64,000 bases of DNA from a phage, in the sequence record PZ166176.1. One strand, written 5' to 3'. Below the pieces are notes generated by a model. The model was not told the origin of the DNA. It did no database searches and saw only the letters and a list, made by a program, of their open reading frames with translations. Shown here in pieces: positions 435 through 14,526 of this stretch; positions within the stretch are counted from its first letter, which is position 1, and each line of letters starts with the position of its first letter. A program made the position numbers and the translations under genes.

Positions 435-447
435 CAAAGGAGAAATT

Positions 448-1165: not shown

Positions 1166-1221
1166 TATTTTAACTTTTTTCATTTTTAGAACAAAGGTGT
1201 CACTTTGTAGCACAGAAATAA

Positions 1222-1590: not shown

Positions 1591-1605
1591 ATTTATGCAG
1601 GTGAG

Positions 1606-1711
1606 AATGAGAAGAGTTCTCATGTGGAAATGCAAATGATAATGATTCGCATTTAGGTTTATAAATGAGATTGATTCTTATTTGATAAGGTAAATGATAA
1701 TCATTCTCATT
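1606..1711. promoter_or_regulatory. three palindromic operator-like sites resembling Fur boxes
   Basis: atgagaagagttctcat (1606-1623), aatgataatgattcgcatt (1635-1653), aatgataatcattctcatt (1693-1711); compare Fur consensus GATAATGATAATCATTATC. Confidence 0.45.
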
Positions 1712-1938
1712 TAGAGAATGACGCGCAGGGGTGGTGTTTGTCTCGCGCTCCCGTGTCCCCTCGCCATGTAATAAGAATAACAGATCCAGCCAGGAAAGCA
1801 AGCGATTATTTTATCTTTACATTTCTTTACAAATATATAGCGCCCAGCCTACCGGCGATCAACCTTCCAACCAGCGCCCTGGTATGTTAGCCCCGCCTTT
1901 ACGCCGTGGGGTGGCGCTTCCTCTTCTGTATGTAAAAC

Positions 1939-1967
1939 AGTATAAGCCCGATCCCTGGGCTTGTCAA
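1939..1967 (-). promoter_or_regulatory. consensus sigma70 promoter on minus strand (TTGACA-N17-TATACT)
   Basis: Reverse complement of 1939-1967 reads TTGACAagcccagggatcgggctTATACT; fires leftward into the GC-rich ORF-free segment. Confidence 0.55.
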
Positions 1968-1969
1968 GA

Positions 1970-2236
1970 TTATTTTTTGTTTTCTTGCCAGGATAGGACA
2001 CCTAACCAAAAATACATATCGCCCCGCGCCCCTGGTGGTATCTTGCTTTCCCCGCCGCCACTGCAAGCCCATAGATAACCATTTGCGAACGTATCAAAAT
2101 GATCTATCTCTTCCACCTTATGATCGCCCAGGTTGAGAACGGTTTCAACCTTTAAGCCCGTTGCGCTTGCTACCTGGTGCACCGTGCCGCCTTGCCAGCC
2201 CAATGAGTGCATAAGGTGTAATGTAGTAGTTGTCAT
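1970..2236 (-). CDS. hypothetical protein (88 aa), doubtful
   Basis: Only ORF in the GC-rich island with a plausible SD (gaaaggg, 8 nt upstream); no family recognised; may be spurious. Confidence 0.3.
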   Translation of the reverse strand: MTTTTLHLMHSLGWQGGTVHQVASATGLKVETVLNLGDHKVEEIDHFDTFANGYLWACSGGGESKIPPGARGDMYFWLGVLSWQENKK

Positions 2237-2345
2237 GGTATCGCCCTTTCTTTGTTGTGCGCCCTGGTTGGCGCGGTAGAAAGATGATAGCCTTTTCCTT
2301 TATATATAGCAAGCAAAAAGAAAATAAAAAAAGATTGAAAAAGTG

Positions 2346-2374
2346 GTTGACGTTCCTCACCTGGTAGCGTAGTA
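2346..2374 (+). promoter_or_regulatory. sigma70-like promoter (TTGACG-N17-TAGTAT)
   Basis: ttgacgttcctcacctggtagcgtagtat upstream of ORF 2511. Confidence 0.4.
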
Positions 2375-2510
2375 TTCATCTTGTCGAGGGGGGCGCGGCA
2401 CAACGACAATAAAAAACAGGAGGGCGCAATGTAGGACGGGCAAAGGTGAGGATCTCCATAATCCACCGTCAACCAACAAAAAACATCATTCATCACCTGG
2501 AGTTAAAATC

Positions 2511-2708
2511 ATGGCAACATTGCACATAGTAGCGAAAGCAGGACAAATCAGCGTCGTGGTAAACGGTTTTACTGAGTTCAGTCATCCCCAGGATGATCAT
2601 GAAACGGTTTTATCTTTCATTGATTCACTGTTAGAAATGGGAGTAATTACAGAAGACCAGCACGCTACAAAATGCAAACGCGTTAATCAGATTGCAGGAA
2701 TAGAATAA
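2511..2708 (+). CDS. hypothetical early protein (65 aa)
   Basis: ORF with GGAG upstream of ATG. Confidence 0.55.
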   Translation: MATLHIVAKAGQISVVVNGFTEFSHPQDDHETVLSFIDSLLEMGVITEDQHATKCKRVNQIAGIE

Positions 2709-2714
2709 AAAGTA

Positions 2715-2778
2715 TTGACAACAACCAACAACCTGATAAGATGTATCACATAGGGCGGCGGAATGGTCCACCGCTCAC
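2715..2778 (+). promoter_or_regulatory. PeSL-like cassette: promoter plus 5' stem-loop
   Basis: TTGACA 2715-2720, -10 TAAGAT, then tagggcggcggaatggtccaccgc hairpin, SD, ATG at 2800. Confidence 0.7.
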
Positions 2779-2799
2779 AACAGAAGAGAGATTATAATC

Positions 2800-3072
2800 A
2801 TGGCATCATATAGCGCAACAATGATCGTAGCTGGCACCACTGGTAAACCTATGAGCGGTGGCGGATCTTTCGCAAATATCAACATTGACGGGCGTTTATC
2901 CCTGGACGCAGCGATCACCGTGGCGCGGGAAACATTTAAGAAAGAATGTAAATTCAATAAACAAGATTATCTCGGTTTTGCTATTGAAAAAACCGCGCGT
3001 TTTGTTGATTATAAAAGCCCAAAAATGGTTGATACTACACTAAAAGCGCAAGATGTAGCGTTTTTGCTTTAA
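2800..3072 (+). CDS. hypothetical early protein (90 aa)
   Basis: First ORF after cassette; SD agagag. Confidence 0.65.
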   Translation: MASYSATMIVAGTTGKPMSGGGSFANINIDGRLSLDAAITVARETFKKECKFNKQDYLGFAIEKTARFVDYKSPKMVDTTLKAQDVAFLL

Positions 3073-3075
3073 GGC

Positions 3076-3131
3076 TTGACATTAACGAATAATTTGTTAA
3101 TATGTTACATAAAGCGGGAATAGTTCCCGCT
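3076..3131 (+). promoter_or_regulatory. PeSL-like cassette
   Basis: TTGACA 3076-3081, taatat -10, hairpin gcgggaatagttcccgc 3114-3130. Confidence 0.65.
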
Positions 3132-3148
3132 ATTTGTAAGGTGGTAGA

Positions 3149-3406
3149 ATGTTTTACATCAAATTAAAAGGTCACGTGATCGCGTTCAAAGATAACGCTT
3201 TTTACAGATTAGCAAAATATGCGTTAATACATCCCCACTATGTTTATATAAGGGGGCGTGATGAAATAAATATCTTTGATCAAACAACATGCGAAAACAT
3301 CGAGATCCGCAAGGTTGGCGTACGTGATTATCGTACATCTTTCTACCCTTGCAAGGATTCAGCAAGTCTTTTCAAAGTATGCCAATTGTTGAAAAAAGGT
3401 GGTTAA
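3149..3406 (+). CDS. hypothetical early protein (85 aa)
   Basis: ORF after cassette, SD aaggtgg. Confidence 0.6.
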   Translation: MFYIKLKGHVIAFKDNAFYRLAKYALIHPHYVYIRGRDEINIFDQTTCENIEIRKVGVRDYRTSFYPCKDSASLFKVCQLLKKGG

Positions 3407-3407
3407 T

Positions 3408-3965
3408 ATGGGCCGCGAATATGTGATCCAGTCTTGGGTAAAACATGAAGCAGATGATCCGCGCATCATTCCCGATCATCTTATCGATGAATCCACGGGA
3501 TATAGCGGTGAGCAAATAGGTAACAGGTTAGCACGTAGTAACGGCAACGTAAAAGCGCGTTATGTGCGCCCTGGCTGGCTGGCAAATGGTAACGCTGATT
3601 TATCCAGTGCGGAAGATGCGAGCGACGGCGCGAAAGATAATCCTTTGTACAAAATTGATCCGGCTTTTCGTGTCCTGGATGAATACCCCAACAAGATAGC
3701 GGCGCTCGATCAGGCCCTGGAAAGTAAGCGCATCACCTGGACCGCTTACAACATGGCAAAAAACGTACTTGATGGTAAATTGATTCAAGCCGAAAGAAAA
3801 TTAGCCAAAATTGCAGCCATAGCCCAGGAGGAAGACGAGGAGACAACGGAAGAGGAAGAGTACGAAGAGATCCCGCCGTTGTTGTGTGTTGATGCTTTTC
3901 CTGATTATCAGCCGACAGAGGAAGAAAAAAGGATCGCACTAGAAAACTTTGAAAATAGTCTTTGA
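3408..3965 (+). CDS. hypothetical early protein with acidic C-terminal region
   Basis: ATG at 3408 with SD aaggtgg; the track GTG start at 3399 overlaps the SD; Glu-rich tail EEDEETTEEEEYEE. Confidence 0.6.
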   Translation: MGREYVIQSWVKHEADDPRIIPDHLIDESTGYSGEQIGNRLARSNGNVKARYVRPGWLANGNADLSSAEDASDGAKDNPLYKIDPAFRVLDEYPNKIAALDQALESKRITWTAYNMAKNVLDGKLIQAERKLAKIAAIAQEEDEETTEEEEYEEIPPLLCVDAFPDYQPTEEEKRIALENFENSL

Positions 3966-4020
3966 CATATCGCCGCCACTGGCATAATATTTACCACGTA
4001 GGGCGGCAATGGTGCCGCTC
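3962..4020 (+). promoter_or_regulatory. PeSL-like cassette
   Basis: TTGACA 3962-3967, cataat -10, hairpin gggcggcaatggtgccgctc 4001-4020. Confidence 0.7.
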
Positions 4021-4047
4021 ATAGTGAAATTATGCAAGAGGTTTACA

Positions 4048-4143
4048 ATGATTAATAAAGAAAATAGCTTGACGGTTGGAACGATTAACGCTATCATTTT
4101 CGCCGTTCCATTTTGGGTTGTAGTAGCGGCTATTATTTTCTAA
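4048..4143 (+). CDS. 31-aa hydrophobic micro-protein (predicted single transmembrane helix)
   Basis: MINKENSLTVGTINAIIFAVPFWVVVAAIIF; SD caagagg 7 nt upstream; below the track length cut-off. Confidence 0.45.
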   Translation: MINKENSLTVGTINAIIFAVPFWVVVAAIIF

Positions 4144-4153
4144 AAAAATATTC

Positions 4154-4214
4154 TTGACAACGTTTTTTAATCTGATAAGATGTATCACATAGGGCGGCGG
4201 AATACTTCCCCGCC
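4154..4214 (+). promoter_or_regulatory. PeSL-like cassette
   Basis: TTGACA 4154-4159; same promoter sequence as the 2715 copy; hairpin gggcggcggaatacttccccgcc. Confidence 0.7.
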
Positions 4215-4235
4215 AAAACAAAAAAGGGTAACACA

Positions 4236-4598
4236 ATGAGCAAGCAAATCAATACTATCATGTTTAATCTGGTATCTTTCCGCGACGATATGAAAAATTT
4301 ACCACGTGAAACGGTTGATATTCATGTTTCAGCTTATCGCGCCCTTATTGATATGTTACCGCTAAAACGTGATCAACATGCCGCTAATATGATGCTTAAC
4401 GCTATGCTTAAAAAGATGATTCAAACGGATCTCACCCTGGCATATGAGTATCAAGGGTGCTTATATGCAACTTACAACAAGGCGGTACCTGGTCTGGGAA
4501 GTACCGAAGAATTGCACGGCTTAAACCTGGATCAAAACACTTGGGATAGTATGCGCCGCGTTATGGTATGGGCCGAAAGCGGTAAAATTTACGAATAA
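4236..4598 (+). CDS. hypothetical early protein (120 aa)
   Basis: ORF after cassette. Confidence 0.65.
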   Translation: MSKQINTIMFNLVSFRDDMKNLPRETVDIHVSAYRALIDMLPLKRDQHAANMMLNAMLKKMIQTDLTLAYEYQGCLYATYNKAVPGLGSTEELHGLNLDQNTWDSMRRVMVWAESGKIYE

Positions 4599-4604
4599 AA
4601 ACGG

Positions 4605-4664
4605 TTGACACTGTTTAAACTTCTGGTATAGTTTACCACATAGGGCGGGAAGTGGTTTCCCGCC
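4605..4664 (+). promoter_or_regulatory. PeSL-like cassette
   Basis: TTGACA 4605-4610, TATAGT -10, hairpin tagggcgggaagtggtttcccgcc 4641-4664. Confidence 0.7.
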
Positions 4665-4668
4665 AACA

Positions 4669-5052
4669 ATGAAAAAGGTTATCATCATGGCTATTAATAT
4701 TAATGTTTCCGCTTATGCTACCCTGGCTGACACGGCTAAAATTGAATTATCCAGCATTGAGGTGGTGCATATTAGCGCCCGTCGCTGGTTTCAACAGTCC
4801 TACGGTAACACATATTTTTCTTTAATGGTTGACGTTGAGATCGGCGGTAAACTGATCGAGGTGGTTAACGTTCCGTTTCAATATGGTTATGGTGATCATT
4901 TTGATACCGTCGCCCTGGAAGAATTTAGCAAGGTTGTTAATATGGAAGGCAAAGAGTTTTCACGCGGCGCGTATCTTTCCCGTTTTTGCCGTGACAATGG
5001 GATCACTGTATACAGTCATGCAAGCGATGTAAAACGTAAAAAAGATTTATAA
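4669..5052 (+). CDS. hypothetical early protein (127 aa)
   Basis: ORF after cassette; an alternative ATG at 4687 has the better SD. Confidence 0.6.
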   Translation: MKKVIIMAININVSAYATLADTAKIELSSIEVVHISARRWFQQSYGNTYFSLMVDVEIGGKLIEVVNVPFQYGYGDHFDTVALEEFSKVVNMEGKEFSRGAYLSRFCRDNGITVYSHASDVKRKKDL

Positions 5053-5058
5053 AAAGCA

Positions 5059-5118
5059 TTGACAGCAGGAAGAAAAAGCGTAAAATGTTTTATATCGAGA
5101 GCGGGAATAGTTCCCGCC
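5059..5118 (+). promoter_or_regulatory. PeSL-like cassette
   Basis: TTGACA 5059-5064, taaaat -10, hairpin gcgggaatagttcccgc 5101-5117. Confidence 0.65.
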
Positions 5119-5141
5119 TCACTGAAAAAGAGAGAAAAATC

Positions 5142-5381
5142 ATGGCTAAATCTAAAATGTATAACGGTCACAAAAATAAAACTCACTGGAATGTAAGCCT
5201 TTGGATTAATAACGATGAATCATTATACCGTTTGGCCCAAGATTTTATTAACGCTAATGCTAATCGTAATGATGCGGCGCGGGATATGATGCTTTTTCTG
5301 GAACAAACTGGACAAGATAAAACGCCTGACGGTTTCAAATATAGCACTACTGCGATCCGCGCCGCGATGGTTGGAATGTAA
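5142..5381 (+). CDS. hypothetical early protein (79 aa)
   Basis: ATG 5142 with SD agagag; the track start at 5085 would read through the hairpin. Confidence 0.6.
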   Translation: MAKSKMYNGHKNKTHWNVSLWINNDESLYRLAQDFINANANRNDAARDMMLFLEQTGQDKTPDGFKYSTTAIRAAMVGM

Positions 5382-5390
5382 TAAAAACAG

Positions 5391-5450
5391 TTGACAACGT
5401 TTAAAATTAGTGTAAGATGTATCACATAGGGCGGGAAGTGGTTTCCCGCC
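5391..5450 (+). promoter_or_regulatory. PeSL-like cassette
   Basis: TTGACA 5391-5396, taagat -10, hairpin 5427-5450. Confidence 0.7.
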
Positions 5451-5472
5451 AACAACAGAGAGATTAAAGAGT

Positions 5473-5700
5473 ATGGCTATCAATATTGTTCGCGTATCCG
5501 GCACCGTTGGCACTTCCCAGGTTATTGCAGTTGTAACAAACAAAAAGATTAATGATGCATGTGAAAGCTTGAATAAGTGGGCTATTGCTAATTTTGGGGA
5601 ATATGCAAGCGTCGAGTACATCGAATCCTACCAGGTGCCAACCATCAGCCTAACCGATCTCAACGTTGATCGCCTGTTATGCCTGGATGAATTAATCTGA
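5473..5700 (+). CDS. hypothetical early protein (75 aa)
   Basis: ORF after cassette. Confidence 0.65.
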   Translation: MAINIVRVSGTVGTSQVIAVVTNKKINDACESLNKWAIANFGEYASVEYIESYQVPTISLTDLNVDRLLCLDELI

Positions 5701-5708
5701 AAAAGATT

Positions 5709-5767
5709 GTTGACACGGGAAAGAAAAAGAGTAAACTGTATTACGTAGGGCGGCAATGGTGCCGCTC
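5709..5767 (+). promoter_or_regulatory. PeSL-like cassette
   Basis: TTGACA 5709-5714, hairpin gtagggcggcaatggtgccgc. Confidence 0.7.
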
Positions 5768-5790
5768 ACAACAGAAGAGAGATTATTACG

Positions 5791-6003
5791 ATGGCTAATA
5801 TCCGCACACTGTTAAAAAATGCAAGTCAAGTTTTATTTTCAGATGACGAGTATTTCAATAAAGACATTACAGGCGTGAAGAATATCAAAGATGTAAAAAG
5901 TGTTATGGGTATATATTGCAATGTTAAACGTGTTGGAACGTTCGGTGATAAAGTATTGTACCAATCAGGTGATTACAATTTTACTTTGACGATTATTTCA
6001 TAA
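5791..6003 (+). CDS. hypothetical early protein (70 aa)
   Basis: ORF after cassette. Confidence 0.65.
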   Translation: MANIRTLLKNASQVLFSDDEYFNKDITGVKNIKDVKSVMGIYCNVKRVGTFGDKVLYQSGDYNFTLTIIS

Positions 6004-6007
6004 AACG

Positions 6008-6070
6008 CTTGCAATACTGCAAAAATAAAGTAAACTGTATTACATCAAGGCGGCGGAATGGTCCACCGCC
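6008..6070 (+). promoter_or_regulatory. PeSL-like cassette (variant -35 CTTGCA)
   Basis: hairpin aaggcggcggaatggtccaccgcc 6047-6070. Confidence 0.6.
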
Positions 6071-6094
6071 TAAGAAAGAGAAGAGGAAAATATC

Positions 6095-6262
6095 ATGATC
6101 ACTTTCGCTACCCGTGAAGCCGCTCGCAACGTTGCACGTAAAGTTAACGCCGCCAACCTGGGCGCTACTTTTAAAGCCCCGGTGAAAGATGAATCAGGCA
6201 AATGGATCTTCCCTGGTCTGCGTCACGCTGATAAGCTAGGCACTTTAAGCCTTAAAAAATAA
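6095..6262 (+). CDS. 55-aa basic small protein
   Basis: MITFATREAARNVARKVNAANLGATFKAPVKDESGKWIFPGLRHADKLGTLSLKK; SD aagagg; below the track cut-off. Confidence 0.5.
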   Translation: MITFATREAARNVARKVNAANLGATFKAPVKDESGKWIFPGLRHADKLGTLSLKK

Positions 6263-6264
6263 TC

Positions 6265-6303
6265 GTTGACTTTTCGTTATAGCGCCTTATAATGGGCGCT
6301 ATA
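6265..6303 (+). promoter_or_regulatory. promoter plus variant stem-loop
   Basis: TTGACT 6265-6270, hairpin tatagcgcc-ttataatg-ggcgctata. Confidence 0.5.
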
Positions 6304-6336
6304 GAGAAGAGAAACCACTACTAACAAGGAAACATC

Positions 6337-6558
6337 ATGATCACTTTCGCTATTGTCGCCGTTGTCGCTGGTCAAGTTTACGTAAATGAGACATTTACTA
6401 CAGAAGACAAGGCCGCAGGAGACATAACCGCCGTTTACAATGAGTGCAAGGCAGTAGAAAGGATGTTAGCGCCTTGTATGTTAATGAGTGAACGCCAGGA
6501 CGGGATAACAGTGTTTACTAACATTGAGACAGGGTACCAAATGGTAGTAACAAAATAA
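6337..6558 (+). CDS. hypothetical early protein (73 aa)
   Basis: ORF; shares N-terminal MITFA with the 6095 ORF. Confidence 0.6.
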   Translation: MITFAIVAVVAGQVYVNETFTTEDKAAGDITAVYNECKAVERMLAPCMLMSERQDGITVFTNIETGYQMVVTK

Positions 6559-6561
6559 AGC

Positions 6562-6619
6562 TTGACACGGATTTAATTTTCAGTAAACTGTTACACGTAG
6601 GGCGGGAATAGTTCCCGCT
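6562..6619 (+). promoter_or_regulatory. PeSL-like cassette
   Basis: TTGACA 6562-6567, hairpin gtagggcgggaatagttcccgc. Confidence 0.7.
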
Positions 6620-6636
6620 AAAAAGAGAGAAAGACC

Positions 6637-6990
6637 ATGAAAGCACAAAATGCAATTAAAGAGTACATCCTTGCCGCTATCGATTTTAATGATTACGGTA
6701 TTACAACCGAAAAAGAGAAGATCGCGGAATTGATGCGCCGTTTTAATTCCGAGTACTGGTACCCTGATAACCAATCACGTTTTAATTATAGTATTGTTAA
6801 AGCACTTGCATCATGGTTACAAGGTTTGCCATCAAATATCAATATCGCTTTCGAATATTGGGAAATTGATCGTTTGTTAACATCCTGGGGATACATTAAA
6901 GAGAATAGCAGCGATGATAAAATCCAACGAGAAAGGGAAAATTATTGGCTTTATATTGCAGGCGTGATCCTTGCTTGCTCTTATGAATGA
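6637..6990 (+). CDS. hypothetical early protein (117 aa)
   Basis: ORF after cassette. Confidence 0.65.
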   Translation: MKAQNAIKEYILAAIDFNDYGITTEKEKIAELMRRFNSEYWYPDNQSRFNYSIVKALASWLQGLPSNINIAFEYWEIDRLLTSWGYIKENSSDDKIQRERENYWLYIAGVILACSYE

Positions 6991-6996
6991 TAAACC

Positions 6997-7052
6997 TTGA
7001 CAATTTTACAAAACAGTTTAAATTAACAATATAGCGGCAATGGTGCCGCTCA
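6997..7052 (+). promoter_or_regulatory. PeSL-like cassette
   Basis: TTGACA 6997-7002, hairpin atagcggcaatggtgccgct. Confidence 0.65.
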
Positions 7053-7069
7053 TATGAAGAGGAAACAAA

Positions 7070-7216
7070 ATGAATACATCTAATCGCGCAGAAAAAATTC
7101 AATCTTCCAAGATCCGCAAGGCCTGGAACGAGGAAGTGATCCGCAAAGGCGACAAGCGCAATAAAACAAAGCGCGGGAAGAGTGACAAATATAATTGGAT
7201 GGATTTAGAGGATTAA
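7070..7216 (+). CDS. 48-aa lysine/arginine-rich small protein
   Basis: MNTSNRAEKIQSSKIRKAWNEEVIRKGDKRNKTKRGKSDKYNWMDLED; SD agaggaaac; followed by a terminator. Confidence 0.5.
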   Translation: MNTSNRAEKIQSSKIRKAWNEEVIRKGDKRNKTKRGKSDKYNWMDLED

Positions 7217-7223
7217 CATAACA

Positions 7224-7250
7224 AGGGCGCACCAAGCGCCCTTTCTTTTT
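7224..7250 (+). terminator. rho-independent terminator (GGGCGCACCAAGCGCCC family)
   Basis: agggcgcaccaagcgccct plus ttctttttt; the same hairpin recurs at 12701 and 13265. Confidence 0.7.
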
Positions 7251-7271
7251 ACATGTAGAGGATAAACAAAA

Positions 7272-7457
7272 ATGACTTTAAACGAGCTTAAAACAGCCTA
7301 CAGCACAACATTAAAAATAGCCGTGCGCTACCGTGACGAATACGGTTTTATTGCGCAGGGCGTGATCCTGGGCTTTTCTGACGATGGTTTGATCTATGTT
7401 GATGCACATCATAACAAGGTAAAACCTGAAAACGTCATTAGCATAAAATATCTTTAA
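7272..7457 (+). CDS. hypothetical early protein (61 aa)
   Basis: ORF with SD gaggat. Confidence 0.55.
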   Translation: MTLNELKTAYSTTLKIAVRYRDEYGFIAQGVILGFSDDGLIYVDAHHNKVKPENVISIKYL

Positions 7458-7463
7458 AAGTGG

Positions 7464-7523
7464 TTGACACCATAACTGGACCTGTTAAACTGTATTACAT
7501 CAGGCGGGGAATAGTTCTCCACC
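7464..7523 (+). promoter_or_regulatory. PeSL-like cassette (degenerate hairpin)
   Basis: TTGACA 7464-7469, hairpin caggcggggaatagttctccacc. Confidence 0.55.
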
Positions 7524-7542
7524 ATACAAAAAGGTAAATATT

Positions 7543-7749
7543 ATGATCACCGCAAAACAAGAGAAAATCATTATCGACGTTGCAGCCGTTGCCGCTATTG
7601 CTATTATTGGATCTTATTATGATACCCGTTTCCCGTCGGCTATGCATGAGGTCGCCGCCGTTGCATCAGTTGGCGTACTGTTTTACGTTGGTAAACGCTA
7701 TTTATCACCAATGATTAACAAGCTGACACCGTGGAAAAATAAAGGTTGA
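7543..7749 (+). CDS. hypothetical membrane protein (68 aa)
   Basis: Two hydrophobic stretches (AAVAAIAIIGSYY, AAVASVGVLFYVG). Confidence 0.6.
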   Translation: MITAKQEKIIIDVAAVAAIAIIGSYYDTRFPSAMHEVAAVASVGVLFYVGKRYLSPMINKLTPWKNKG

Positions 7750-7800
7750 TCCTGTTTTATATTGTGTTATAGTTATCGTGTAGGGCGGCAATGGTGCCGT
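7746..7800 (+). promoter_or_regulatory. PeSL-like cassette (variant -35 TTGATC)
   Basis: hairpin gtagggcggcaatggtgccg 7779-7800. Confidence 0.55.
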
Positions 7801-7820
7801 GCCCCTTTGAGGATGCAATC

Positions 7821-8105: not shown

Positions 8106-8123
8106 AATAATTTAGAAAAAGGC

Positions 8124-8180
8124 TTGCAATCATTTTGAGATAGTGTATATTTAATTCATAGGGCGGCGGGAATAGTTCCC
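8124..8180 (+). promoter_or_regulatory. PeSL-like cassette
   Basis: -35 TTGCAA, hairpin catagggcggcgggaatagttccc. Confidence 0.6.
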
Positions 8181-8203
8181 AAAGCAAACGAGAGGATTAC
8201 ACG

Positions 8204-8323
8204 ATGAGCAAGTACACAGTAGAATACACGGTAGAAAATCCGGCAGTATCCGAAGGTAAAAAGATGACATTTGCCATCAGTATAATCGCTTTCGTTGTCA
8301 CTATCTTATCAATCATGTTATAA
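8204..8323 (+). CDS. 39-aa micro-protein with C-terminal transmembrane helix
   Basis: MSKYTVEYTVENPAVSEGKKMTFAISIIAFVVTILSIML; SD agagga. Confidence 0.45.
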   Translation: MSKYTVEYTVENPAVSEGKKMTFAISIIAFVVTILSIML

Positions 8324-8333
8324 GGTGCACACC

Positions 8334-8495
8334 ATGAAAACAACAGACATTATCAAAGAGATCGCCCTTGCCGCTGGCGTTGAAGTCGAGGAAGTGATCG
8401 CGCTCAATCTTACAGAAAAAGATCTGCGCAACTATGAAGCGGAAAGCGTGAAAGCAAGCGGCGCGGTCCTGGTATATGATCCGGCTAACAAGTAA
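8334..8495 (+). CDS. hypothetical early protein (53 aa)
   Basis: ATG 8334 (MKTTDIIKEIAL...) after SD aaggtg; the track start at 8295 overlaps the upstream micro-ORF. Confidence 0.5.
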   Translation: MKTTDIIKEIALAAGVEVEEVIALNLTEKDLRNYEAESVKASGAVLVYDPANK

Positions 8496-8504
8496 GGGGA
8501 TAAC

Positions 8505-8615
8505 ATGAATCCGAAAGATATGCAAGCATGGAAAGGGTACGACGATCTAAGCGCCTTGCGCAATAAGTCAAGCCGTAACCTTAGACGGTTGGAAGCAAAG
8601 AAAAAGAAAAAATAG
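8505..8615 (+). CDS. 36-aa basic small protein
   Basis: MNPKDMQAWKGYDDLSALRNKSSRNLRRLEAKKKKK; SD aagggga. Confidence 0.4.
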   Translation: MNPKDMQAWKGYDDLSALRNKSSRNLRRLEAKKKKK

Positions 8616-8675
8616 TTTGACAAGTCCGCCTAGTCTGATAATATGTATCTTGTAGGGCGGCAATGGTGCCGCTCA
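8616..8675 (+). promoter_or_regulatory. PeSL-like cassette
   Basis: TTGACA 8616-8621, hairpin tgtagggcggcaatggtgccgctc. Confidence 0.7.
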
Positions 8676-8693
8676 CAAGAAGAGAGAAAAATC

Positions 8694-8978
8694 ATGAAAA
8701 TCACAAAAAGCCTAACTAATTATGCAGCACGTCGCGGATTATGTTTAACCGTTGAAAACTTAGGGAAAGAAGACTTTTTGTGTTTTTGGGAGCTTGAAAA
8801 TGATTGCGAGTGGATGTTTTCTTATTCTATCTGCGAAGATCAAAACGGTTGTTTGTTAACCTGGCGCGGTAATATCTATTTACCGGAAGAAATTAAAGAA
8901 GAGTTACCAGGTACGATCATGACAGAGAGACAGCTTAAGGAAATGATTAATTTTGTAGGGCAAAACATTAAAAAATAA
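8694..8978 (+). CDS. hypothetical early protein (94 aa)
   Basis: ATG 8694 with SD agagag; the track start at 8643 reads through the hairpin. Confidence 0.6.
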   Translation: MKITKSLTNYAARRGLCLTVENLGKEDFLCFWELENDCEWMFSYSICEDQNGCLLTWRGNIYLPEEIKEELPGTIMTERQLKEMINFVGQNIKK

Positions 8979-9040
8979 TTTGACAGCACGCAAACAACGT
9001 AGTAAAGTTTACCACATAGGGCGGCGGAATGGTCCACCGC
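8979..9040 (+). promoter_or_regulatory. PeSL-like cassette
   Basis: TTGACA 8979-8984, hairpin identical to the 2751 copy. Confidence 0.7.
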
Positions 9041-9063
9041 TCACAACAGAAGAGAAACAAATC

Positions 9064-9234
9064 ATGATCCCGACTATGTTTTATGTATCGCGCAAAGGTC
9101 ACAATATTTTTTGGTCTGAAGATTTAAACGAAGCTATGACGTTTGCCCGTGATCGTGTTGCTATCGGTGGCGTTAACATCACCGTAACCGATGAAAACGG
9201 CATTGAATACTATAACGGCGACGATGAAGAGTAA
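9064..9234 (+). CDS. hypothetical early protein (56 aa)
   Basis: ATG 9064 (MIPTMFYVSRKG...) with SD agagaaac. Confidence 0.55.
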   Translation: MIPTMFYVSRKGHNIFWSEDLNEAMTFARDRVAIGGVNITVTDENGIEYYNGDDEE

Positions 9235-9240
9235 TTAATG

Positions 9241-9263
9241 AGGCGGGGAGTATTCCCCGCCGT
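9241..9263 (+). other. stand-alone GC stem-loop with no promoter upstream
   Basis: gaggcggggagtattccccgccg immediately before the SD of ORF 9281. Confidence 0.5.
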
Positions 9264-9280
9264 CAATAAAGAGGTAAATC

Positions 9281-9550
9281 ATGAAAATATCATTGGACGT
9301 TGCAATCAAGGCCATCGAATCCGGTTACATCCTGGTAAAAGATGATAAGGCTAAAATAGTGCATCATGTTAACAAGGAAACAGGCGAAAGCATGATCACA
9401 TATAAAGCCGCCTATTTTCTCCAATCAGTAGCAGATCCGCGCGTACAACGCCAGGTTACGGCGGCTATTGCTAAAAAATTGTGTTCCTTGCAGGGTGCAA
9501 GTTTTAACGAGATCCCGCCGTGTTTTGAGTGGTCAAGCTTGAAAAAATAA
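9281..9550 (+). CDS. hypothetical early protein (89 aa)
   Basis: ORF with SD agaggt. Confidence 0.65.
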   Translation: MKISLDVAIKAIESGYILVKDDKAKIVHHVNKETGESMITYKAAYFLQSVADPRVQRQVTAAIAKKLCSLQGASFNEIPPCFEWSSLKK

Positions 9551-9551
9551 T

Positions 9552-9613
9552 TTGACAACAATTATAAATCGGGTAGAATGTATTTCGTAGGGCGGGGCAA
9601 TAAGGCAACGCCC
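9552..9613 (+). promoter_or_regulatory. PeSL-like cassette
   Basis: TTGACA 9552-9557, hairpin tagggcggggcaataaggcaacgccc. Confidence 0.65.
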
Positions 9614-9631
9614 ATTAATGAGGGTAGAATC

Positions 9632-9736
9632 ATGTTAGAGAAAATTTTCACGGTTGTAATAGTGGGCCTGGCGTTATCGGTTGGAGTGGTTGCAACTATG
9701 GCTAACATGATCCTATCTTCCCACGGTATCGGTTAA
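9632..9736 (+). CDS. 34-aa hydrophobic micro-protein
   Basis: MLEKIFTVVIVGLALSVGVVATMANMILSSHGIG; SD gagggtag. Confidence 0.45.
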   Translation: MLEKIFTVVIVGLALSVGVVATMANMILSSHGIG

Positions 9737-9737
9737 G

Positions 9738-9962
9738 GTGAAACAAATGATCACGAACAAAACAGGCAAAACGGAATTTTTACGCGGCTTACAAGTTGGT
9801 AAGCCTGAGATCTGGCATTGCACGAAGTCCGCGCATAATGAAATGAAAGATTTTACCGCTACTTTACAACGTGTTAAAATATCTATCACACAGAAAAAAG
9901 CCTTGTTAGTAGTAGAAAACGAGATCCCGCAAACTATTATTATTGTCGAGCGTACAGCATGA
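9738..9962 (+). CDS. hypothetical early protein (74 aa)
   Basis: ORF with SD aaggtgaaac. Confidence 0.6.
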   Translation: MKQMITNKTGKTEFLRGLQVGKPEIWHCTKSAHNEMKDFTATLQRVKISITQKKALLVVENEIPQTIIIVERTA

Positions 9963-10345
9963 AAACAGAAATCATTATTGAAATCATCAACGGCTATAAA
10001 GAAGCCTTTATTTTTGCTGAATCAGCAAGGGATCATGAAGGTAATTTTATTGATAACTTAGACGATTATGATTTTTCTCCTAGCGCAGATCAACGGATCG
10101 CCCAGGATGTAACAGCCTTTATTAATGCTAATCTTGCCGCTATCTCTGAGGCAATGAGCGACGGCGCAACAGCCAACCAGATCGGGAATGATTTACATTT
10201 TACCCGTAACGGTCACGGCGTAGGCTTTTGGGATCGCCCTGAAATATACACCACTAACACAGCCAACCGCCTAACCAATGCAGCTAAGTTTATGCCGAAC
10301 GTGTCGGCTTACATTGGTGAAGATAATTTGATTTATATTGAATAA
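9959..10345 (+). CDS. hypothetical early protein (128 aa)
   Basis: Start overlaps the upstream stop (ATGA coupling). Confidence 0.65.
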   Translation: MKTEIIIEIINGYKEAFIFAESARDHEGNFIDNLDDYDFSPSADQRIAQDVTAFINANLAAISEAMSDGATANQIGNDLHFTRNGHGVGFWDRPEIYTTNTANRLTNAAKFMPNVSAYIGEDNLIYIE

Positions 10346-10351
10346 AAAGTA

Positions 10352-10410
10352 TTGACACAGATCGCCAGTGTGCTAATATTTACCACGTAGGGCGGCAATG
10401 GTGCCGCTCC
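10352..10410 (+). promoter_or_regulatory. PeSL-like cassette
   Basis: TTGACA 10352-10357, -10 taatat, hairpin gtagggcggcaatggtgccgctc. Confidence 0.7.
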
Positions 10411-10428
10411 CCGAAAAAGGTAAACATT

Positions 10429-10620
10429 ATGAAAACCATCTCCTACCTGGAATCGAATAACATGTTTTTTGCGCCCGTTGATGAAATCATCGAAGCATTA
10501 AACAACGAGGAAGGGATCAAAGGTTTATCTTATAGCCAACTTTTAGGAATGGTTGCAGCAAATGAAGAGCTTGCTTACTATGTTGAAAATTTTGATGAAG
10601 CTGTAATCTTTACAAAATAA
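10429..10620 (+). CDS. hypothetical early protein (63 aa)
   Basis: ORF after cassette. Confidence 0.65.
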   Translation: MKTISYLESNNMFFAPVDEIIEALNNEEGIKGLSYSQLLGMVAANEELAYYVENFDEAVIFTK

Positions 10621-10622
10621 TC

Positions 10623-10680
10623 CTTGATCTAATCTCTTAGATAACTTATATTTAATGCGTAGGGCGGCAATGGTGCCGCC
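10623..10680 (+). promoter_or_regulatory. PeSL-like cassette (variant -35 CTTGAT)
   Basis: hairpin gtagggcggcaatggtgccgcc. Confidence 0.55.
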
Positions 10681-10698
10681 GATAATGAGGAAAGTAAA

Positions 10699-10998
10699 AT
10701 GGAAACTATCGCTATTATTACCGTAGAAAAACTGGTTGTTGGTGATGTATTCGCGTTAATGGTGCCTAACAGTAGCAAGCTGGGCGCTTATGAAGTGATG
10801 GATCATAAAAATGAATCATTTGGCGACGGTTGCACAATGGCGGTAAAATCTTTAAAGGATGGAATCATCCGTCAAGCTAATTGGCACAAAGGAAATCAAG
10901 TCGGATTAATATCAGCTAATTTCTTGCCAGAAGAGCAAACGTTAGACCAACTATCAGGCGGTAAGACGTTAGCCGAACTACTGGAAACAGCGATCTAA
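10699..10998 (+). CDS. hypothetical early protein (99 aa)
   Basis: ORF with SD gaggaaag. Confidence 0.65.
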   Translation: METIAIITVEKLVVGDVFALMVPNSSKLGAYEVMDHKNESFGDGCTMAVKSLKDGIIRQANWHKGNQVGLISANFLPEEQTLDQLSGGKTLAELLETAI

Positions 10999-11042
10999 TC
11001 AACAAAGGGGCGGCAACGCCCCACATCAGAAAGGAAAAGATT

Positions 11043-11279
11043 ATGAGTATTGCAACAGTATTAACCGCCGTTAAAACCGCTGAATCATCCGGCTTGCATG
11101 TTGAGCTTATAGATCAACCAGGTGGCGATCTCCTTGTCCAGGTTTACCCGCCGAAAGTAGGGGATGATCATTATTGGTGCTATTCCGATACGTTCGAACA
11201 AGTAGACACGAAAGCGATCACGGCTTTTATTTTAAAAGCTATTGAAGAAAATAATTTTCATTATAACATCAATCAATAA
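11043..11279 (+). CDS. hypothetical early protein (78 aa)
   Basis: ORF; preceded by a promoter-less hairpin ggggcggcaacgcccc. Confidence 0.6.
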   Translation: MSIATVLTAVKTAESSGLHVELIDQPGGDLLVQVYPPKVGDDHYWCYSDTFEQVDTKAITAFILKAIEENNFHYNINQ

Positions 11280-11334
11280 ACCATAAGCGCGGCGGTAACG
11301 CCCCATTAAACGCAATAGGAAGAGGCTAGAAAGC

Positions 11335-11619
11335 ATGAAAAAGATGATCGCAGTAGTTGCCCTGGTTGTTGGTATTAACGCGCCTGTAATGGCGAAAGAG
11401 TTGCCAGAATCCATCACGTTAACCGATATTAACGCAGTGAACCGGATCGGCGTTAATTATCGCCTATGCCTTGCCGCTAAAACTTTCCAGGACGGCACAA
11501 CAGAGTACTACGGATTCGAGGGTATCCGCTGCGGTGAGCTTGCACGCGACCTTAAGGAAGATCCAGACCTTGAGGCCATACCGATGACCGTAAACGGTAA
11601 AGCTTACGTAAGCCGCTAA
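11335..11619 (+). CDS. secreted small protein with predicted signal peptide (94 aa)
   Basis: N-terminus MKKMIAVVALVVGINAPVMA is signal-peptide-like; SD aggaagagg. Confidence 0.6.
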   Translation: MKKMIAVVALVVGINAPVMAKELPESITLTDINAVNRIGVNYRLCLAAKTFQDGTTEYYGFEGIRCGELARDLKEDPDLEAIPMTVNGKAYVSR

Positions 11620-11621
11620 CC

Positions 11622-11756
11622 ATGAGAAAGGTAATCATCACAATGGGGATCGTAGTAGCAACGCTGGCGCTTATCCCTTTCATGGTTGAACATGTGCTGA
11701 TTAATGTTGTCCTGGTAGTCAGTGACCTATTGGAAACGGTTGGCAACTGGTTTTAA
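11622..11756 (+). CDS. 44-aa hydrophobic micro-protein
   Basis: MRKVIITMGIVVATLALIPFMVEHVLINVVLVVSDLLETVGNWF; followed by a terminator. Confidence 0.45.
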   Translation: MRKVIITMGIVVATLALIPFMVEHVLINVVLVVSDLLETVGNWF

Positions 11757-11765
11757 GATAAATAA

Positions 11766-11793
11766 ACAGGGCTTGTTTTTGTCCTGTTTTTTG
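11766..11793 (+). terminator. rho-independent terminator
   Basis: acagggcttgtttttgtcctgt plus tttttt. Confidence 0.7.
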
Positions 11794-11932
11794 TTATACT
11801 TATTGAACGGGCGGCACCTGGGAGCAGGGGGAAGATAATCACCGGACGACCCCGCTATATATTGATAGCTAACATCTATCAAACAACAAAACATCAAAGA
11901 GATAAACTATCAAATCTTTACAATCCTACCTA

Positions 11933-11991
11933 TTGACACCGGATCACGCTTACATTATCATTTATCACGTAGGGCGGGAATGTTTCCCGCC
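11933..11991 (+). promoter_or_regulatory. PeSL-like cassette
   Basis: TTGACA 11933-11938, hairpin gtagggcgggaatgtttcccgcc. Confidence 0.7.
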
Positions 11992-12009
11992 TGATTTAGG
12001 AGTTATATC

Positions 12010-12243
12010 ATGATCGAACAAATTAAAAGCACTAAACCAAATGTTAACGGTAATGTTTCTCACTTTATCGGGGATAATGAAAGAGGTACACCGTACGCCG
12101 CCGTAACCGTTCAACCGAACGGGGATTATTGGTTTACCGTGTACGGATCTTACTCTTTTGGACGTTCGGCACATGATAAGATCTTGCAAGTGGTTAAGCC
12201 TACTGGGAAGAATATCACAGCAGAAAAATTTTATAAAAAATAG
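12010..12243 (+). CDS. hypothetical early protein (77 aa)
   Basis: ORF after cassette, SD ttaggag. Confidence 0.65.
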   Translation: MIEQIKSTKPNVNGNVSHFIGDNERGTPYAAVTVQPNGDYWFTVYGSYSFGRSAHDKILQVVKPTGKNITAEKFYKK

Positions 12244-12303
12244 CTTGCTTTATTTCTCCTGTTAACTTATAGTTATTGCGTAGGGCGAGCAATACAGCAA
12301 GCC
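12244..12303 (+). promoter_or_regulatory. PeSL-like cassette (variant)
   Basis: -35 CTTGCT, hairpin gtagggcgagcaatacagcaagccc. Confidence 0.5.
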
Positions 12304-12321
12304 CACAAAGAGGAAAAGAAG

Positions 12322-12690
12322 ATGAGCAAATCAGCAATTAAAGCACTTGAAAAAGCACAAGAAGTGATCGCAACGTCAACCACTGGCGCAAAGGTTAATC
12401 TCGTTGGTTATCTGGCAGATGAAACTATCCGTAAAAATTGGCGTAATGCTGATTTACTGGCTTGCTTATTGATTAATAGTGTCGCTAATGCTTTCCAGTG
12501 TGAAACAGCCGAGAGCCTGGAGGAAAACTTGTTTGATAATATGGATCAAGCCATTGAAACCTATATACAGTCAAACCTGGATAGCTGGAACAGTAAAACA
12601 TGGCCCGACAATTTACGCGATACAACTGATCAACTGATCCGCCTTGCCGTGATGGTTGAACGCGATAACGTTTACAACAGCACAAAGTAA
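12322..12690 (+). CDS. hypothetical early protein (122 aa)
   Basis: ORF with SD agaggaaaag. Confidence 0.65.
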   Translation: MSKSAIKALEKAQEVIATSTTGAKVNLVGYLADETIRKNWRNADLLACLLINSVANAFQCETAESLEENLFDNMDQAIETYIQSNLDSWNSKTWPDNLRDTTDQLIRLAVMVERDNVYNSTK

Positions 12691-12700
12691 GATTATACAA

Positions 12701-12722
12701 GGGCGCACCAAGCGCCCTTTAA
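12701..12722 (+). terminator. terminator hairpin (GGGCGCACCAAGCGCCC family)
   Basis: gggcgcaccaagcgccc plus ttt; weak T tract. Confidence 0.55.
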
Positions 12723-12747
12723 CGTAAAGAAATGTAAATAATGCGCT

Positions 12748-12782
12748 ATCCCCTATTGACAGGGGATCGGCGTTATATTATA
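12748..12782 (+). promoter_or_regulatory. promoter with -35 hexamer inside a hairpin loop
   Basis: atcccctaTTGACAggggat with -10 tatatt downstream. Confidence 0.45.
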
Positions 12783-12829
12783 TTTAACTCACTGGCAGCA
12801 AACAACAAAACGAAACAAAGGATAACACT

Positions 12830-13249
12830 ATGAACATTAAATCAAATAATCCAGCTTACTCCTTCGATAACGCTTTTTGTCACGGTAGCGCCGCCAAAGG
12901 CTTCGAAATCGATGGTAAATTGGTTATCGTGAACGTTGACGGGGAAGAGGTTGCAGTGTATCCGGTAAACGATGTTAAAAGCCGTTTACAATGCCGCATG
13001 GATGTTACCGCATATCAGCTTGATCCGATCCGTGTAGTTGCCCTGGTATTAGAGGAAGAGATCAAAGCAATGCATCACAGTAATAAGTTTATTGGTGACG
13101 CGCAGGATAATATGAACGTTTGCCGCCATAAAGTTAATGAAGCACTGAAAGAATGCGGTTTTAAGGATCTGATGATCAAACGTGATGAAAAATTCCGCTT
13201 TCGTAATGACCTGGCAAACCGGATCTACTCAATCTATGAAGCGTTATAA
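12830..13249 (+). CDS. hypothetical early protein (139 aa)
   Basis: ORF with SD aaaggat; terminator downstream. Confidence 0.65.
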   Translation: MNIKSNNPAYSFDNAFCHGSAAKGFEIDGKLVIVNVDGEEVAVYPVNDVKSRLQCRMDVTAYQLDPIRVVALVLEEEIKAMHHSNKFIGDAQDNMNVCRHKVNEALKECGFKDLMIKRDEKFRFRNDLANRIYSIYEAL

Positions 13250-13264
13250 TTGACAACAAAACAA

Positions 13265-13291
13265 GGGGCGCACCAAGCGCCCTTTCTTTTT
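13265..13291 (+). terminator. rho-independent terminator (GGGCGCACCAAGCGCCC family)
   Basis: gggcgcaccaagcgccc plus tttcttttt. Confidence 0.7.
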
Positions 13292-13498
13292 GCCCGAACA
13301 ATGTTGATAGCTTTCGCCTATGAAAAACCGACACAGAACAAAATTGAATAAATCGCGGTATCGAGCTAATCAACCATTAAACGAATAACCATACCTCCCA
13401 GGGTAACAGGCTGTTAGAGAGCCATTTATAGCGGTTAAAATCGATCAACAACCAACAACAAACCATCAAAAACACCCTTTTACCTCCTTTCTAGTGCA

Positions 13499-13516
13499 AT
13501 GATAACCATTATCATC
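13499..13516. promoter_or_regulatory. Fur-box-like palindrome
   Basis: aatgataaccattatcat. Confidence 0.4.
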
Positions 13517-14056
13517 TATCCATGTTTATCTATGCAATATAAGTGCATAACTATAATGTTGATAATAGTTCGCAACAACTAACTAACCAACAACCTAAAA
13601 CAATAAGCAAACTAATCATAATCAAAGGAATAATAGCAAGATGATTGATAACGACAAACAATCAAACCATGATGAATACTAAGCAAGATAACGATAACAC
13701 GACAAAACAACCAACTAACGAACAATAACAAACGAAACCATTAAAATAATAACTATTGCCATAATAGTGACTGAATGAAATCATTACAAAACGAATCATT
13801 CCCAGGATCATCATTAGCACGCTATGCCGGACACATAGCGAGCTAATAATAAGCCAACTACACCCCAACAATCATAACCATCGGTGATGGTTATTTCTTG
13901 TTACTGCGTAGCTTGCAATGATTGCAAGCGTAATGACGCTTACACTCATTGCGCTGGCTTATTATTAGCATTATATGTAATTACCAAGATCATAACATTA
14001 GCGCAATAACAATAATCATTGTAATGGTTACAATATGAAATCATTAGCATGGCAAT

Positions 14057-14212
14057 AATTATTGGGGGCAATGGGAGGATGATTATCATCATTCCGATAC
14101 ATTGCACACTATGCACATAATAGAATAAAAGTCAATAATTTTGGGGGCGAATACTATCGCGTAGCGATATGTTGAGCACTAAGAAAAGAGATAAACCTTA
14201 ATCATGGGGGCG
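14057..14212. repeat. three direct repeats of a TGGGGGC core
   Basis: attattgggggcaatggg (14057), aattttgggggcgaatac (14135), aatcatgggggcgtaaat (14198); a second direct repeat ATGTTGAGCA at 14165 and 14248. Confidence 0.5.
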
Positions 14213-14330
14213 TAAATATCCGAGGATTGCCAACGGCGATCCGGTAGGATGTTGAGCATCTTCTCTTAAACGTAAATAAAATCAGAAAATTCTTGATTTA
14301 TTATGGTTTTTATGTTAATAAATGTTTAAA

Positions 14331-14349
14331 TAATAATCATTCTCATATG
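14331..14349. promoter_or_regulatory. Fur-box-like palindrome
   Basis: taataatcattctcatatg. Confidence 0.4.
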
Positions 14350-14420
14350 AATAATAGTCTGCTTGTCATGAGCGGGATTAATTGACATTGTTCCGTCATA
14401 TGATGAAGTTGCCAAGCCAT

Positions 14421-14451
14421 TGATAAATAAGTGTTTGTGTGATTTATAATC
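14421..14451 (+). promoter_or_regulatory. sigma70-like promoter (TTGATA-N18-TATAAT)
   Basis: ttgataaataagtgtttgtgtgatttataat; candidate promoter for the block starting at 14868. Confidence 0.4.
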
Positions 14452-14507
14452 AAGTGGCCCACCTTGTCGCTATGTTGGCATGAGCCTTGCATAAGTCATT
14501 GAATACG

Positions 14508-14526
14508 AATGATAATTATTCTCATT
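14508..14526. promoter_or_regulatory. Fur-box-like palindrome
   Basis: aatgataattattctcatt, about 55 nt downstream of the candidate promoter. Confidence 0.45.

Follow-up and report, generated by a model that had tools for sequence, protein, structure and literature searches.

Conserved Fur-type boxes in the long non-coding regions of a phAPEC8-like virulent coliphage

Introduction

In Escherichia coli, the operators of the iron-dependent regulator Fur, among them those of ryhB, fecI, fhuF, cirA, fepA-fes and entC, are 19-bp palindromes built of hexamers that lie in front of a gene, over the -35 and -10 elements of the promoter under repression. The present analysis concerns seven 19-bp palindromes in a 64,000-nt stretch of phage DNA (sequence record PZ166176.1), the whole of which is called the window below. 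The palindromes share the size and the hexamer build of the host operators, and their scores are equal to or higher than those of the operators. They differ in lying either downstream of a leftward promoter or away from any clear promoter, and in that four of them are arranged with a 29-bp period. All seven are found in two long non-coding regions, termed region 1 and region 2 (Table 1).

Fur boxes and Fur-controlled cargo genes are already known from temperate phages. The stx1 promoter of Shiga-toxin prophages is said to be repressed by Fur, as put forward by Calderwood and Mekalanos in 1987. The likeness to that system lies in a host Fur box carried on a phage genome and in what would be an iron-responsive phage function, whereas stx1 has only one box, which covers the promoter of a toxin gene carried as cargo by a temperate phage, and the window has a multi-box array in a virulent phage and no cargo gene. 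At ftnA, five tandem Fur boxes upstream of the gene reportedly reverse silencing by H-NS, a result ascribed to Nandal et al. in 2010. There, as here, several tandem Fur boxes lie in AT-rich DNA at a distance from the core promoter, but the ftnA array is upstream of the promoter that it activates, and no equivalent promoter was identified in the window. Repression by a roadblock within the transcription unit is known for PurR at purB and for CodY and CcpA in Bacillus. In those cases too the operator lies downstream of the start and could halt an elongating polymerase, whereas a phased array of four boxes is unusual; we know of no description of Fur acting as a roadblock.

The injection-stop region of phage T5 is also comparable, being a long, conserved non-coding region with palindromes and repeats, located at the edge of the first-expressed genes and carrying Fur-type boxes. 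It differs in having no homology to the regions studied here outside the boxes and in lacking the GC-rich core and the leftward promoter module described below; two-step DNA entry is a feature of T5 and is not known for phAPEC8-type phages. According to a preprint on the injection stop, it has yet to be resolved how T5 pauses between the two steps of DNA entry; the preprint invokes DnaA boxes without mention of Fur (Davison, bioRxiv 10.1101/866236). In the genome papers on rV5 and CB7, a non-coding box or sigma-70 promoters are described and Fur is never mentioned. Literature searches on Fur in phages of Phapecoctavirus, of the rV5 type or in T5 returned nothing relevant. No account was found of strictly virulent phages whose control regions carry conserved arrays of consensus-grade Fur operators, and such arrays appear to be undescribed.

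Results

A weight matrix for host Fur was learned by an unseeded palindromic motif search of 13 Fur-regulated intergenic regions of E. coli K-12 MG1655 (fepA-fes, fepD-entS, fepB-entC, fhuA, ryhB, cirA, fiu, tonB, exbB, fecI, fhuE, fhuF and sufA), with no phage sequence included. The consensus obtained from the host, AATGATAATCATTATCATT, was identical in motif and register to the phage consensus. When scored with this host-only matrix, the phage sites ranged from 14.3 to 24.7 bits, compared with 11.6 to 22.0 bits for the host sites scored with their own matrix and 9.1 to 21.2 bits for the same sites in leave-one-out scoring, so that the phage scores equal or exceed those of the host operators. 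The textbook Fur box (GATAATGATAATCATTATC / tGATAATnATTATCa) gave a concordant picture, with GATAATGATAATCATTATC matched at 12 to 16 of 19 positions, slightly better than the 12 to 15 in the original prediction, which had been made from the sequence alone. The matrices of host and phage sites were correlated with r = 0.96; part of this agreement is circular, since the host matrix had served to pick the phage boxes. The identification of the palindromes as consensus-grade Fur boxes is therefore well supported by motif, register and scores.

All six sites of the original prediction exist, with true starts at 1606, 1635, 1693, 13498, 14329 and 14508 (the fourth and fifth had been placed at 13499 and 14331). 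A seventh palindrome, at 1664-1682, had been overlooked. With this site counted, region 1 contains four boxes, at 1606, 1635, 1664 and 1693, in an exact 29-bp period, and region 2 contains the other three. Box 14329 is one base off a site found upstream of E. coli ryhB (AATAATAATCATTCTCATT). Weaker matches to the host matrix were located 6 bp from main boxes, at 1629, 1687 and 14502; these shifted secondary matches, together with the insertion of one hexamer in a relative (L022; see below), fit the hexamer build of Fur boxes. Neighbouring Fur sites reportedly cluster 6 bp apart.

The number of boxes was far beyond chance. Six sites of at least 16 bits were present in the 64-kb window, where 0.09 were expected, and AATGATAATCATTCTCATT with up to three mismatches was found at six loci against 0.08 expected matches. 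None of 2,000 simulations that controlled for the local AT-rich composition reached the observed counts. The original prediction had confined the boxes to the two large intergenic regions, and this proved true both of the window and of the Phapecoctavirus 536P1 genome, complete at 149,471 bp, in which all matches of at least 16 bits fell within the two regions. A lower-scoring Fur-like match of 13.5 bits, AACGATTAACGCTATCATT, was noted at 4080-4098, over the spacer and -10 element of a strong promoter at 4069. Relatives carry this match unchanged, but in one of them (L018) it lies inside a small open reading frame (ORF), and its conservation may therefore stem from coding.

Conservation across phages showed that the boxes are under selection. 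In region 1, conservation was 0.66 to 0.92 for the boxes and 0.44 to 0.58 for the spacers between them, with a mean column conservation of 0.92 for box 1693. Box positions were counted from the GAAT that starts the conserved GC-rich core in 17 distinct loci, drawn from Phapecoctavirus, Vequintavirus, Seunavirus, Certrevirus, Mydovirus and IMG/VR contigs. A box scoring 14 bits or more was present at -23 (equivalent to box 1693) in 13 of the 17 loci, at -52 (box 1664) in 8 and at -81 (box 1635) in 5, whereas none of the 17 had a box at any of six control offsets. Every core-containing locus had a box of at least 13 bits inside 120 bp. At the position of box 3, phage anhysbys carries AATGAGAATGATTCTTATT, with a score of 20.5 bits. 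The boxes were kept in other Stephanstirmvirinae and in four genera of Vequintavirinae, the array and GC-rich element being found together in Vequintavirus (E. coli), Seunavirus (Salmonella), Certrevirus (Cronobacter) and Mydovirus (Klebsiella), and also in IMG/VR contigs with a flanking protein only 59% identical. The distance of the boxes from the conserved module of promoter and leader is fixed.

Relative to L022, region 2 was 71% identical overall and box 13498 was unchanged, while box 14329 was 95% identical between flanks of 53 to 65% identity. At box 14508, where the flanks were only 52 to 56% identical, L022 has an additional GATAAT hexamer. More distant contigs in which region 2 could not be aligned still hold Fur-type boxes there; the region-2 boxes shift position between lineages yet persist. 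An exact-box scan of IMG/VR returned more than 120 contigs, which were too mixed to interpret outside large phage genomes.

The anatomy of region 1 was derived from an alignment of 14 diverse sequences combined with sigma-70 promoter scoring. The leftward promoter P_L1 has the highest sigma-70 score of the whole window and was found at an equal alignment position in 14/14 sequences, with differing spacer sequences. A second leftward promoter, P_L2, is weaker in the window and better in relatives of other genera (e.g., TTGCAA-17-TATATT); the TTG of its -35 element and A2 and T6 of its -10 element were invariant in the 14 sequences. The GC-rich core that follows would make up the first ~50 nt of a leftward P_L2 transcript, and the proximal Fur box starts ~53 to 58 nt downstream of the P_L2 start. 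In some genomes the promoter-plus-core module is duplicated, and the second copy again has a Fur box downstream, at ~+87; at least two contigs hold the core twice (L035/L037 and L029/L042). In rV5-type phages, an additional box is present upstream of P_L2.

The original prediction had placed the boxes close to candidate promoters, and this statement proved only partly true. The early block contains 12 strong rightward sigma-70 promoters, none of them overlapped by a box, and the classical arrangement, with a box over the -35 and -10 elements of a repressed promoter, was not found, as no strong promoter overlaps a box. A rightward promoter lying under the proximal box (TTGAAT-18-CAGAAT) was considered as the conserved function and rejected: it was present in only 6/14 relatives, its key -10 adenine was replaced in three relatives, and it was missing from the duplicated module, in which the GAAT persists without a neighbouring box.

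As a separate observation, the module as a whole (1712-1967, comprising P_L1, P_L2 and the GC-rich leader) was better conserved than the neighbouring protein gene (59% amino-acid identity); contigs L037, L042, L041 and L040 hold this phage-specific module. GenBank annotations of this stretch conflict. The phAPEC8 record has a plus-strand ORF at 1731-2078 (phAPEC8_00257) over the conserved promoters, which is probably spurious, while the annotation of phage anhysbys instead has a minus-strand ORF of 88 amino acids at 1970-2236 that matches phrog_19316 from end to end.

The features of the window that bear on these results are collected in Table 1.

Table 1. Positions of Fur-type boxes and associated features in the window
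Feature	Coordinates	Strand or direction	Sequence or elements	Remarks
Region 1	1166-2510			Non-coding, ahead of block A
Hairpin terminator	1221..1256			Closes the upstream rightward genes; annotated terminator in phAPEC8
AT-rich direct repeats	1384..1593		72 nt, two copies; 29 nt, three copies	Beyond the Fur array, away from the leftward promoters
Box 1	1606..1624		AATGAGAAGAGTTCTCATG	14.3 bits; weakest of the region-1 array; 29 bp to next box
Box 2	1635..1653		AATGATAATGATTCGCATT	22.6 bits
Box 3	1664..1682		AATGAGATTGATTCTTATT	16.6 bits; overlooked in the original prediction
Box 4	1693..1711		AATGATAATCATTCTCATT	24.7 bits, window maximum; core-proximal, best conserved
GC-rich core	1712..1766	-	Plus strand ..GAAT-N5-GCA-N5-GGTGwTTGTCTC..	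Conserved across two subfamilies
P_L2	1774..1801	-	-35 TTGCTT 1801-1796, 16-nt spacer, -10 TATTCT 1779-1774	Sigma-70
Direct repeat	1816..1830	-	GTAAAGAAATGTAAA; GTAAA-N5-GTAAA	Upstream of P_L2
P_L1	1939..1967	-	TTGACA 1967-1962, 17-nt spacer, TATACT 1944-1939	
Block A	~2.5-13.2 kb	Rightward		Small early genes
Region 2	13250-14867			Non-coding, between blocks A and B
Region-2 box	13498..13516		AATGATAACCATTATCATC	19.7 bits
Region-2 box	14329..14347		AATAATAATCATTCTCATA	19.7 bits
Region-2 box	14508..14526		AATGATAATTATTCTCATT	23.9 bits
Block B	~14.9-31 kb	Rightward		Small early genes

The direct repeat upstream of P_L2, GTAAAGAAATGTAAA, occurs in exactly two copies in the window, at 1816-1830 (minus strand) and at 12724-12738 (plus strand), and these are the sole exact matches to GTAAA-N5-GTAAA. 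The two copies stand 14 nt and 17 nt upstream of the -35 element of sigma-70 promoters, P_L2 and a strong promoter at 12756, respectively. By reading of the alignment, the repeat was present in 12/14 relatives. Its form matches the consensus of CpxR, a site form of the CpxR/OmpR family, and suggests possible input from a second host regulator. Past the array, the layout of the AT-rich repeats resembles an origin or a protein-binding array; in other genera, three or four iteron-like repeats were found at the equivalent place, several of them with GATCGAG. The terminator at 1221-1256 is likely the left limit of any leftward transcript.

The possibility that the module encodes a structured or host-derived element was examined in several ways. 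Rfam searches of positions 1-16000 of the window, at E-values up to 1, detected no families. Consensus folds of the core and of the P_L1-P_L2 interval had weak energies, between -1.6 and -11.9 kcal/mol, and neither strand showed covariation. A Fur-regulated small RNA of the RyhB kind was therefore rejected, having neither an Rfam match nor covariation nor homology to E. coli DNA. Capture of a host promoter was likewise rejected: when the array and the module were compared by blastn with 5,426 E. coli genomes, the outcome was two short, sub-significant matches (E = 5) or none. A pattern scan of 185,579 species genomes returned 11 matches in unrelated taxa, where ~17 were estimated by chance.

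In region 2, the boxes lie 145 to 325 bp upstream of weak promoter-like sites ahead of block B. A GTG-start ORF of 32 codons (~13375-13473, minus strand) with a perfect AGGAGG, leftward of box 13498, was dropped as a gene candidate. Its start is kept, but it is probably not a gene because L022 has a stop codon in it and its codons vary at second positions. Region 2 also has several long imperfect inverted repeats, and short repeats were noted at 14130-14270 and 14650-14845, with GGGGGCG..GATGTTGAGCA occurring twice and TGATTGCCATGAAA twice.

Boxes of the same type were found in T5-like phages, which were reached through a distant blastn match. In T5 itself (L047; NC_005859), boxes were present at 9552 (19.2 bits), 9656 (24.7 bits, equal to the host consensus) and 9691 (20.0 bits), all inside the annotated injection-stop signal and flanking the shear point of first-step transfer near 9618; a further box lies at 6098. 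Overall, T5 and T5-like phages had three to five boxes scoring 16 bits or more (17 to 24.7) in or near the annotated injection-stop region, the further examples being L027 (2898/3002/3037), L052, L102, L105 and L123. In each of four T5-like contigs from IMG/VR, four to six boxes reached 16 bits, and spacings of 357/104/35 bp were common to three of these contigs, in one case in reverse order. As the motif is common to T5-like siphoviruses and to rV5/phAPEC8-type myoviruses, which share hosts, it points to a host factor.

The genomic setting of the boxes was established by comparison with related phages. Both long non-coding regions were 94 to 99% identical to those of phAPEC8-like phages, and the window is from a phAPEC8-like Phapecoctavirus that infects E. 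coli and belongs to the subfamily Stephanstirmvirinae, a group of ~150-kb virulent myoviruses. Placed on the phAPEC8 map, the window takes in the last part of a rightward gene set, the two early blocks A and B, and leftward nucleotide-metabolism genes, among which the subunits of a class Ia ribonucleotide reductase are encoded. Most of the early proteins have no known function. In Pfam and PHROG searches, the flanking ORFs gave a NADAR domain upstream and otherwise families without known function. A tblastn search with E. coli Fur found no homologue in phages of this group, with matches only in unrelated records; the query sequence was 99% identical to a Salmonella-derived record.

Two observations were made alongside. 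Block A (2500-13250) combines low GC skew with high AT skew and contains 12 strong promoters of the sigma-70 type, all rightward. In block B (14868-31000), GC skew is high and only three promoters are strong. The blocks may be of different origin or be transcribed in different ways. Several records labelled as phages of Acinetobacter, Campylobacter, Klebsiella and Pseudomonas were 93 to 98% identical to this region of a coliphage, which suggests host mislabelling or contamination of the deposits.

Discussion

The safest inference from the motif, its selection and its recurrence in phages of different families with shared hosts is that host Fur-Fe2+ would bind the arrays, and the phages probably sense or exploit the iron status of the host. 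The best explanation overall, which we regard as evenly balanced between holding and failing, is that the boxes are Fur operators that would impose an iron-dependent block on, or repression of, leftward non-coding transcription in region 1. According to this explanation, when phage DNA enters an iron-replete cell, Fur-Fe2+ would occupy the four-box array of region 1 and the three boxes of region 2. The array lies just downstream of the predicted host-type promoters P_L1 and P_L2, with the proximal box ~55 nt past the P_L2 start. Bound Fur would most likely stop or repress transcription of the non-coding unit in an iron-dependent manner. Leftward transcription would then run into the AT-rich repeats only where Fur is inactive, i.e., in iron-starved hosts. 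We infer Fur as the ligand, the block of transcription, the firing of the leftward promoters in infection and the relevance of their output to the infection programme. A block of the leftward unit is favoured because it is the sole arrangement indicated by both the fixed spacing between box and leader and the duplicated module.

Several findings weigh against this explanation. The leftward path from P_L1 and P_L2 contains no ORFs, so that no gene lies downstream, and no supported structured RNA was found there by Rfam searches or covariation. The boxes stand off the -35 and -10 elements of every conserved promoter, unlike the classical Fur arrangement, and a block at +55 would not on its own need the exact spacing observed. 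In region 2, promoter scoring gave no convincing promoter overlapping or partnering any box. The phage sites also depart slightly from the host average, with G at position 6 in 62% of phage sites vs 23% of host sites and a preference for GAGAAT/ATTCTC over the host GATAAT/ATTATC, which could hint at a slightly different ligand; GAGAAT half-sites are, however, also present in host operators (fecI, fhuE, exbB and ryhB). The original prediction had coupled early transcription to host iron status through Fur. The identification of the sites as Fur boxes is strongly supported by motif, register and scores, while control of early transcription is not, the 12 early promoters being without a box.

An alternative that we regard as unlikely is that the boxes are decoys. 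Replicating phage genomes would titrate Fur with no regulation in cis, and host iron-uptake genes would be derepressed or iron freed, to the benefit of the iron-dependent class Ia ribonucleotide reductase whose subunits the phage encodes. Multicopy Fur boxes derepress the regulon in the Fur titration assay (FURTA), and E. coli contains roughly 5,000 to 10,000 Fur monomers; seven boxes with two dimers each on 100 to 300 genomes would be of about the same order as this pool. Titration would further agree with boxes that match or exceed host operators in strength, with no regulated gene adjoining them, and with the positional turnover and persistence of boxes in region 2. It would not require the fixed register to the core (-23/-52/-81) or the 29-bp phasing across genera, and in SSE121, L028 and L030 only a single box is present, in the stretch around the module. 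In T5, moreover, host DNA is reported to be degraded early, and derepression of host genes therefore cannot be the purpose there.

It is comparably unlikely, in our estimation, that Fur has an architectural role, in which the array, the leftward promoters and the AT-rich repeats would form a transcription-activated origin or a checkpoint of DNA entry like that of T5, the complex being built by Fur as a host protein already present in the cell. Origins of T7 and T4 consist of a promoter plus an unwinding element, and the layout of region 1 resembles them in its order of strong promoter(s), conserved leader, phased boxes and AT-rich direct repeats. The three to five strong boxes in the injection-stop region of T5 and T5-like phages also speak for such a role, and in rV5-type phages no origin has been defined and the "non-coding" box is unexplained. 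GC skew was tried as an origin indicator and discarded, giving no origin signal and merely tracking gene orientation. The region-2 boxes, which are without the context of promoter and repeats, tell against the architectural role, and there is no obvious reason why iron-loaded Fur would have been chosen for it. A broader version, which we consider decidedly improbable, would have unrelated virulent phages of Enterobacterales (rV5/phAPEC8-type and T5-type) use Fur as a structural and sensory factor on a non-coding genome-entry checkpoint, with iron state gating a step at the DNA level. That step could be the firing of an origin, or the pause between first- and second-step entry in T5.

A phage-encoded DNA-binding protein might instead read the palindromes, their likeness to Fur boxes being convergent or incidental. 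Phage operators are often palindromes of 17 to 19 bp in phased arrays, the G/C preference at positions 6/14 is consistent and differs from the host average, and the many early proteins without assigned function leave room for such a protein. The match to Fur boxes nevertheless covers all informative positions of the 19-bp motif, the GAGAAT half-sites recur in host operators, and the identical motif is present in T5-like siphoviruses and rV5/phAPEC8-type myoviruses. The original prediction had offered a phage-encoded repressor with a Fur-like operator as its second option; the tblastn search described above lent this no support, and we hold a phage protein to be quite improbable. Least credible, and in our view very improbable, is anti-silencing of the ftnA type, in which, given ample iron, tandem Fur boxes would remove H-NS from AT-rich DNA and so turn on promoters in the vicinity: the four or five tandem boxes within DNA of 27% GC and the location of the region-2 boxes upstream of weak block-B promoter-like sites would suit it, but no conserved promoter is found beyond the array at a constant distance from it, and the fixed spacing relates instead to the leader of the leftward promoter.

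If Fur binds these boxes, the phages would read or manipulate the iron state of the host. Iron is the most restricted nutrient at infection sites, and the phage ribonucleotide reductase also needs it. Phages of the phAPEC8 and rV5 types are common in therapeutic and biocontrol collections, so that iron-dependent behaviour could alter their efficacy in vivo relative to rich medium. For T5, the boxes in the injection-stop region would provide a concrete hypothesis for a long-standing unsolved problem.

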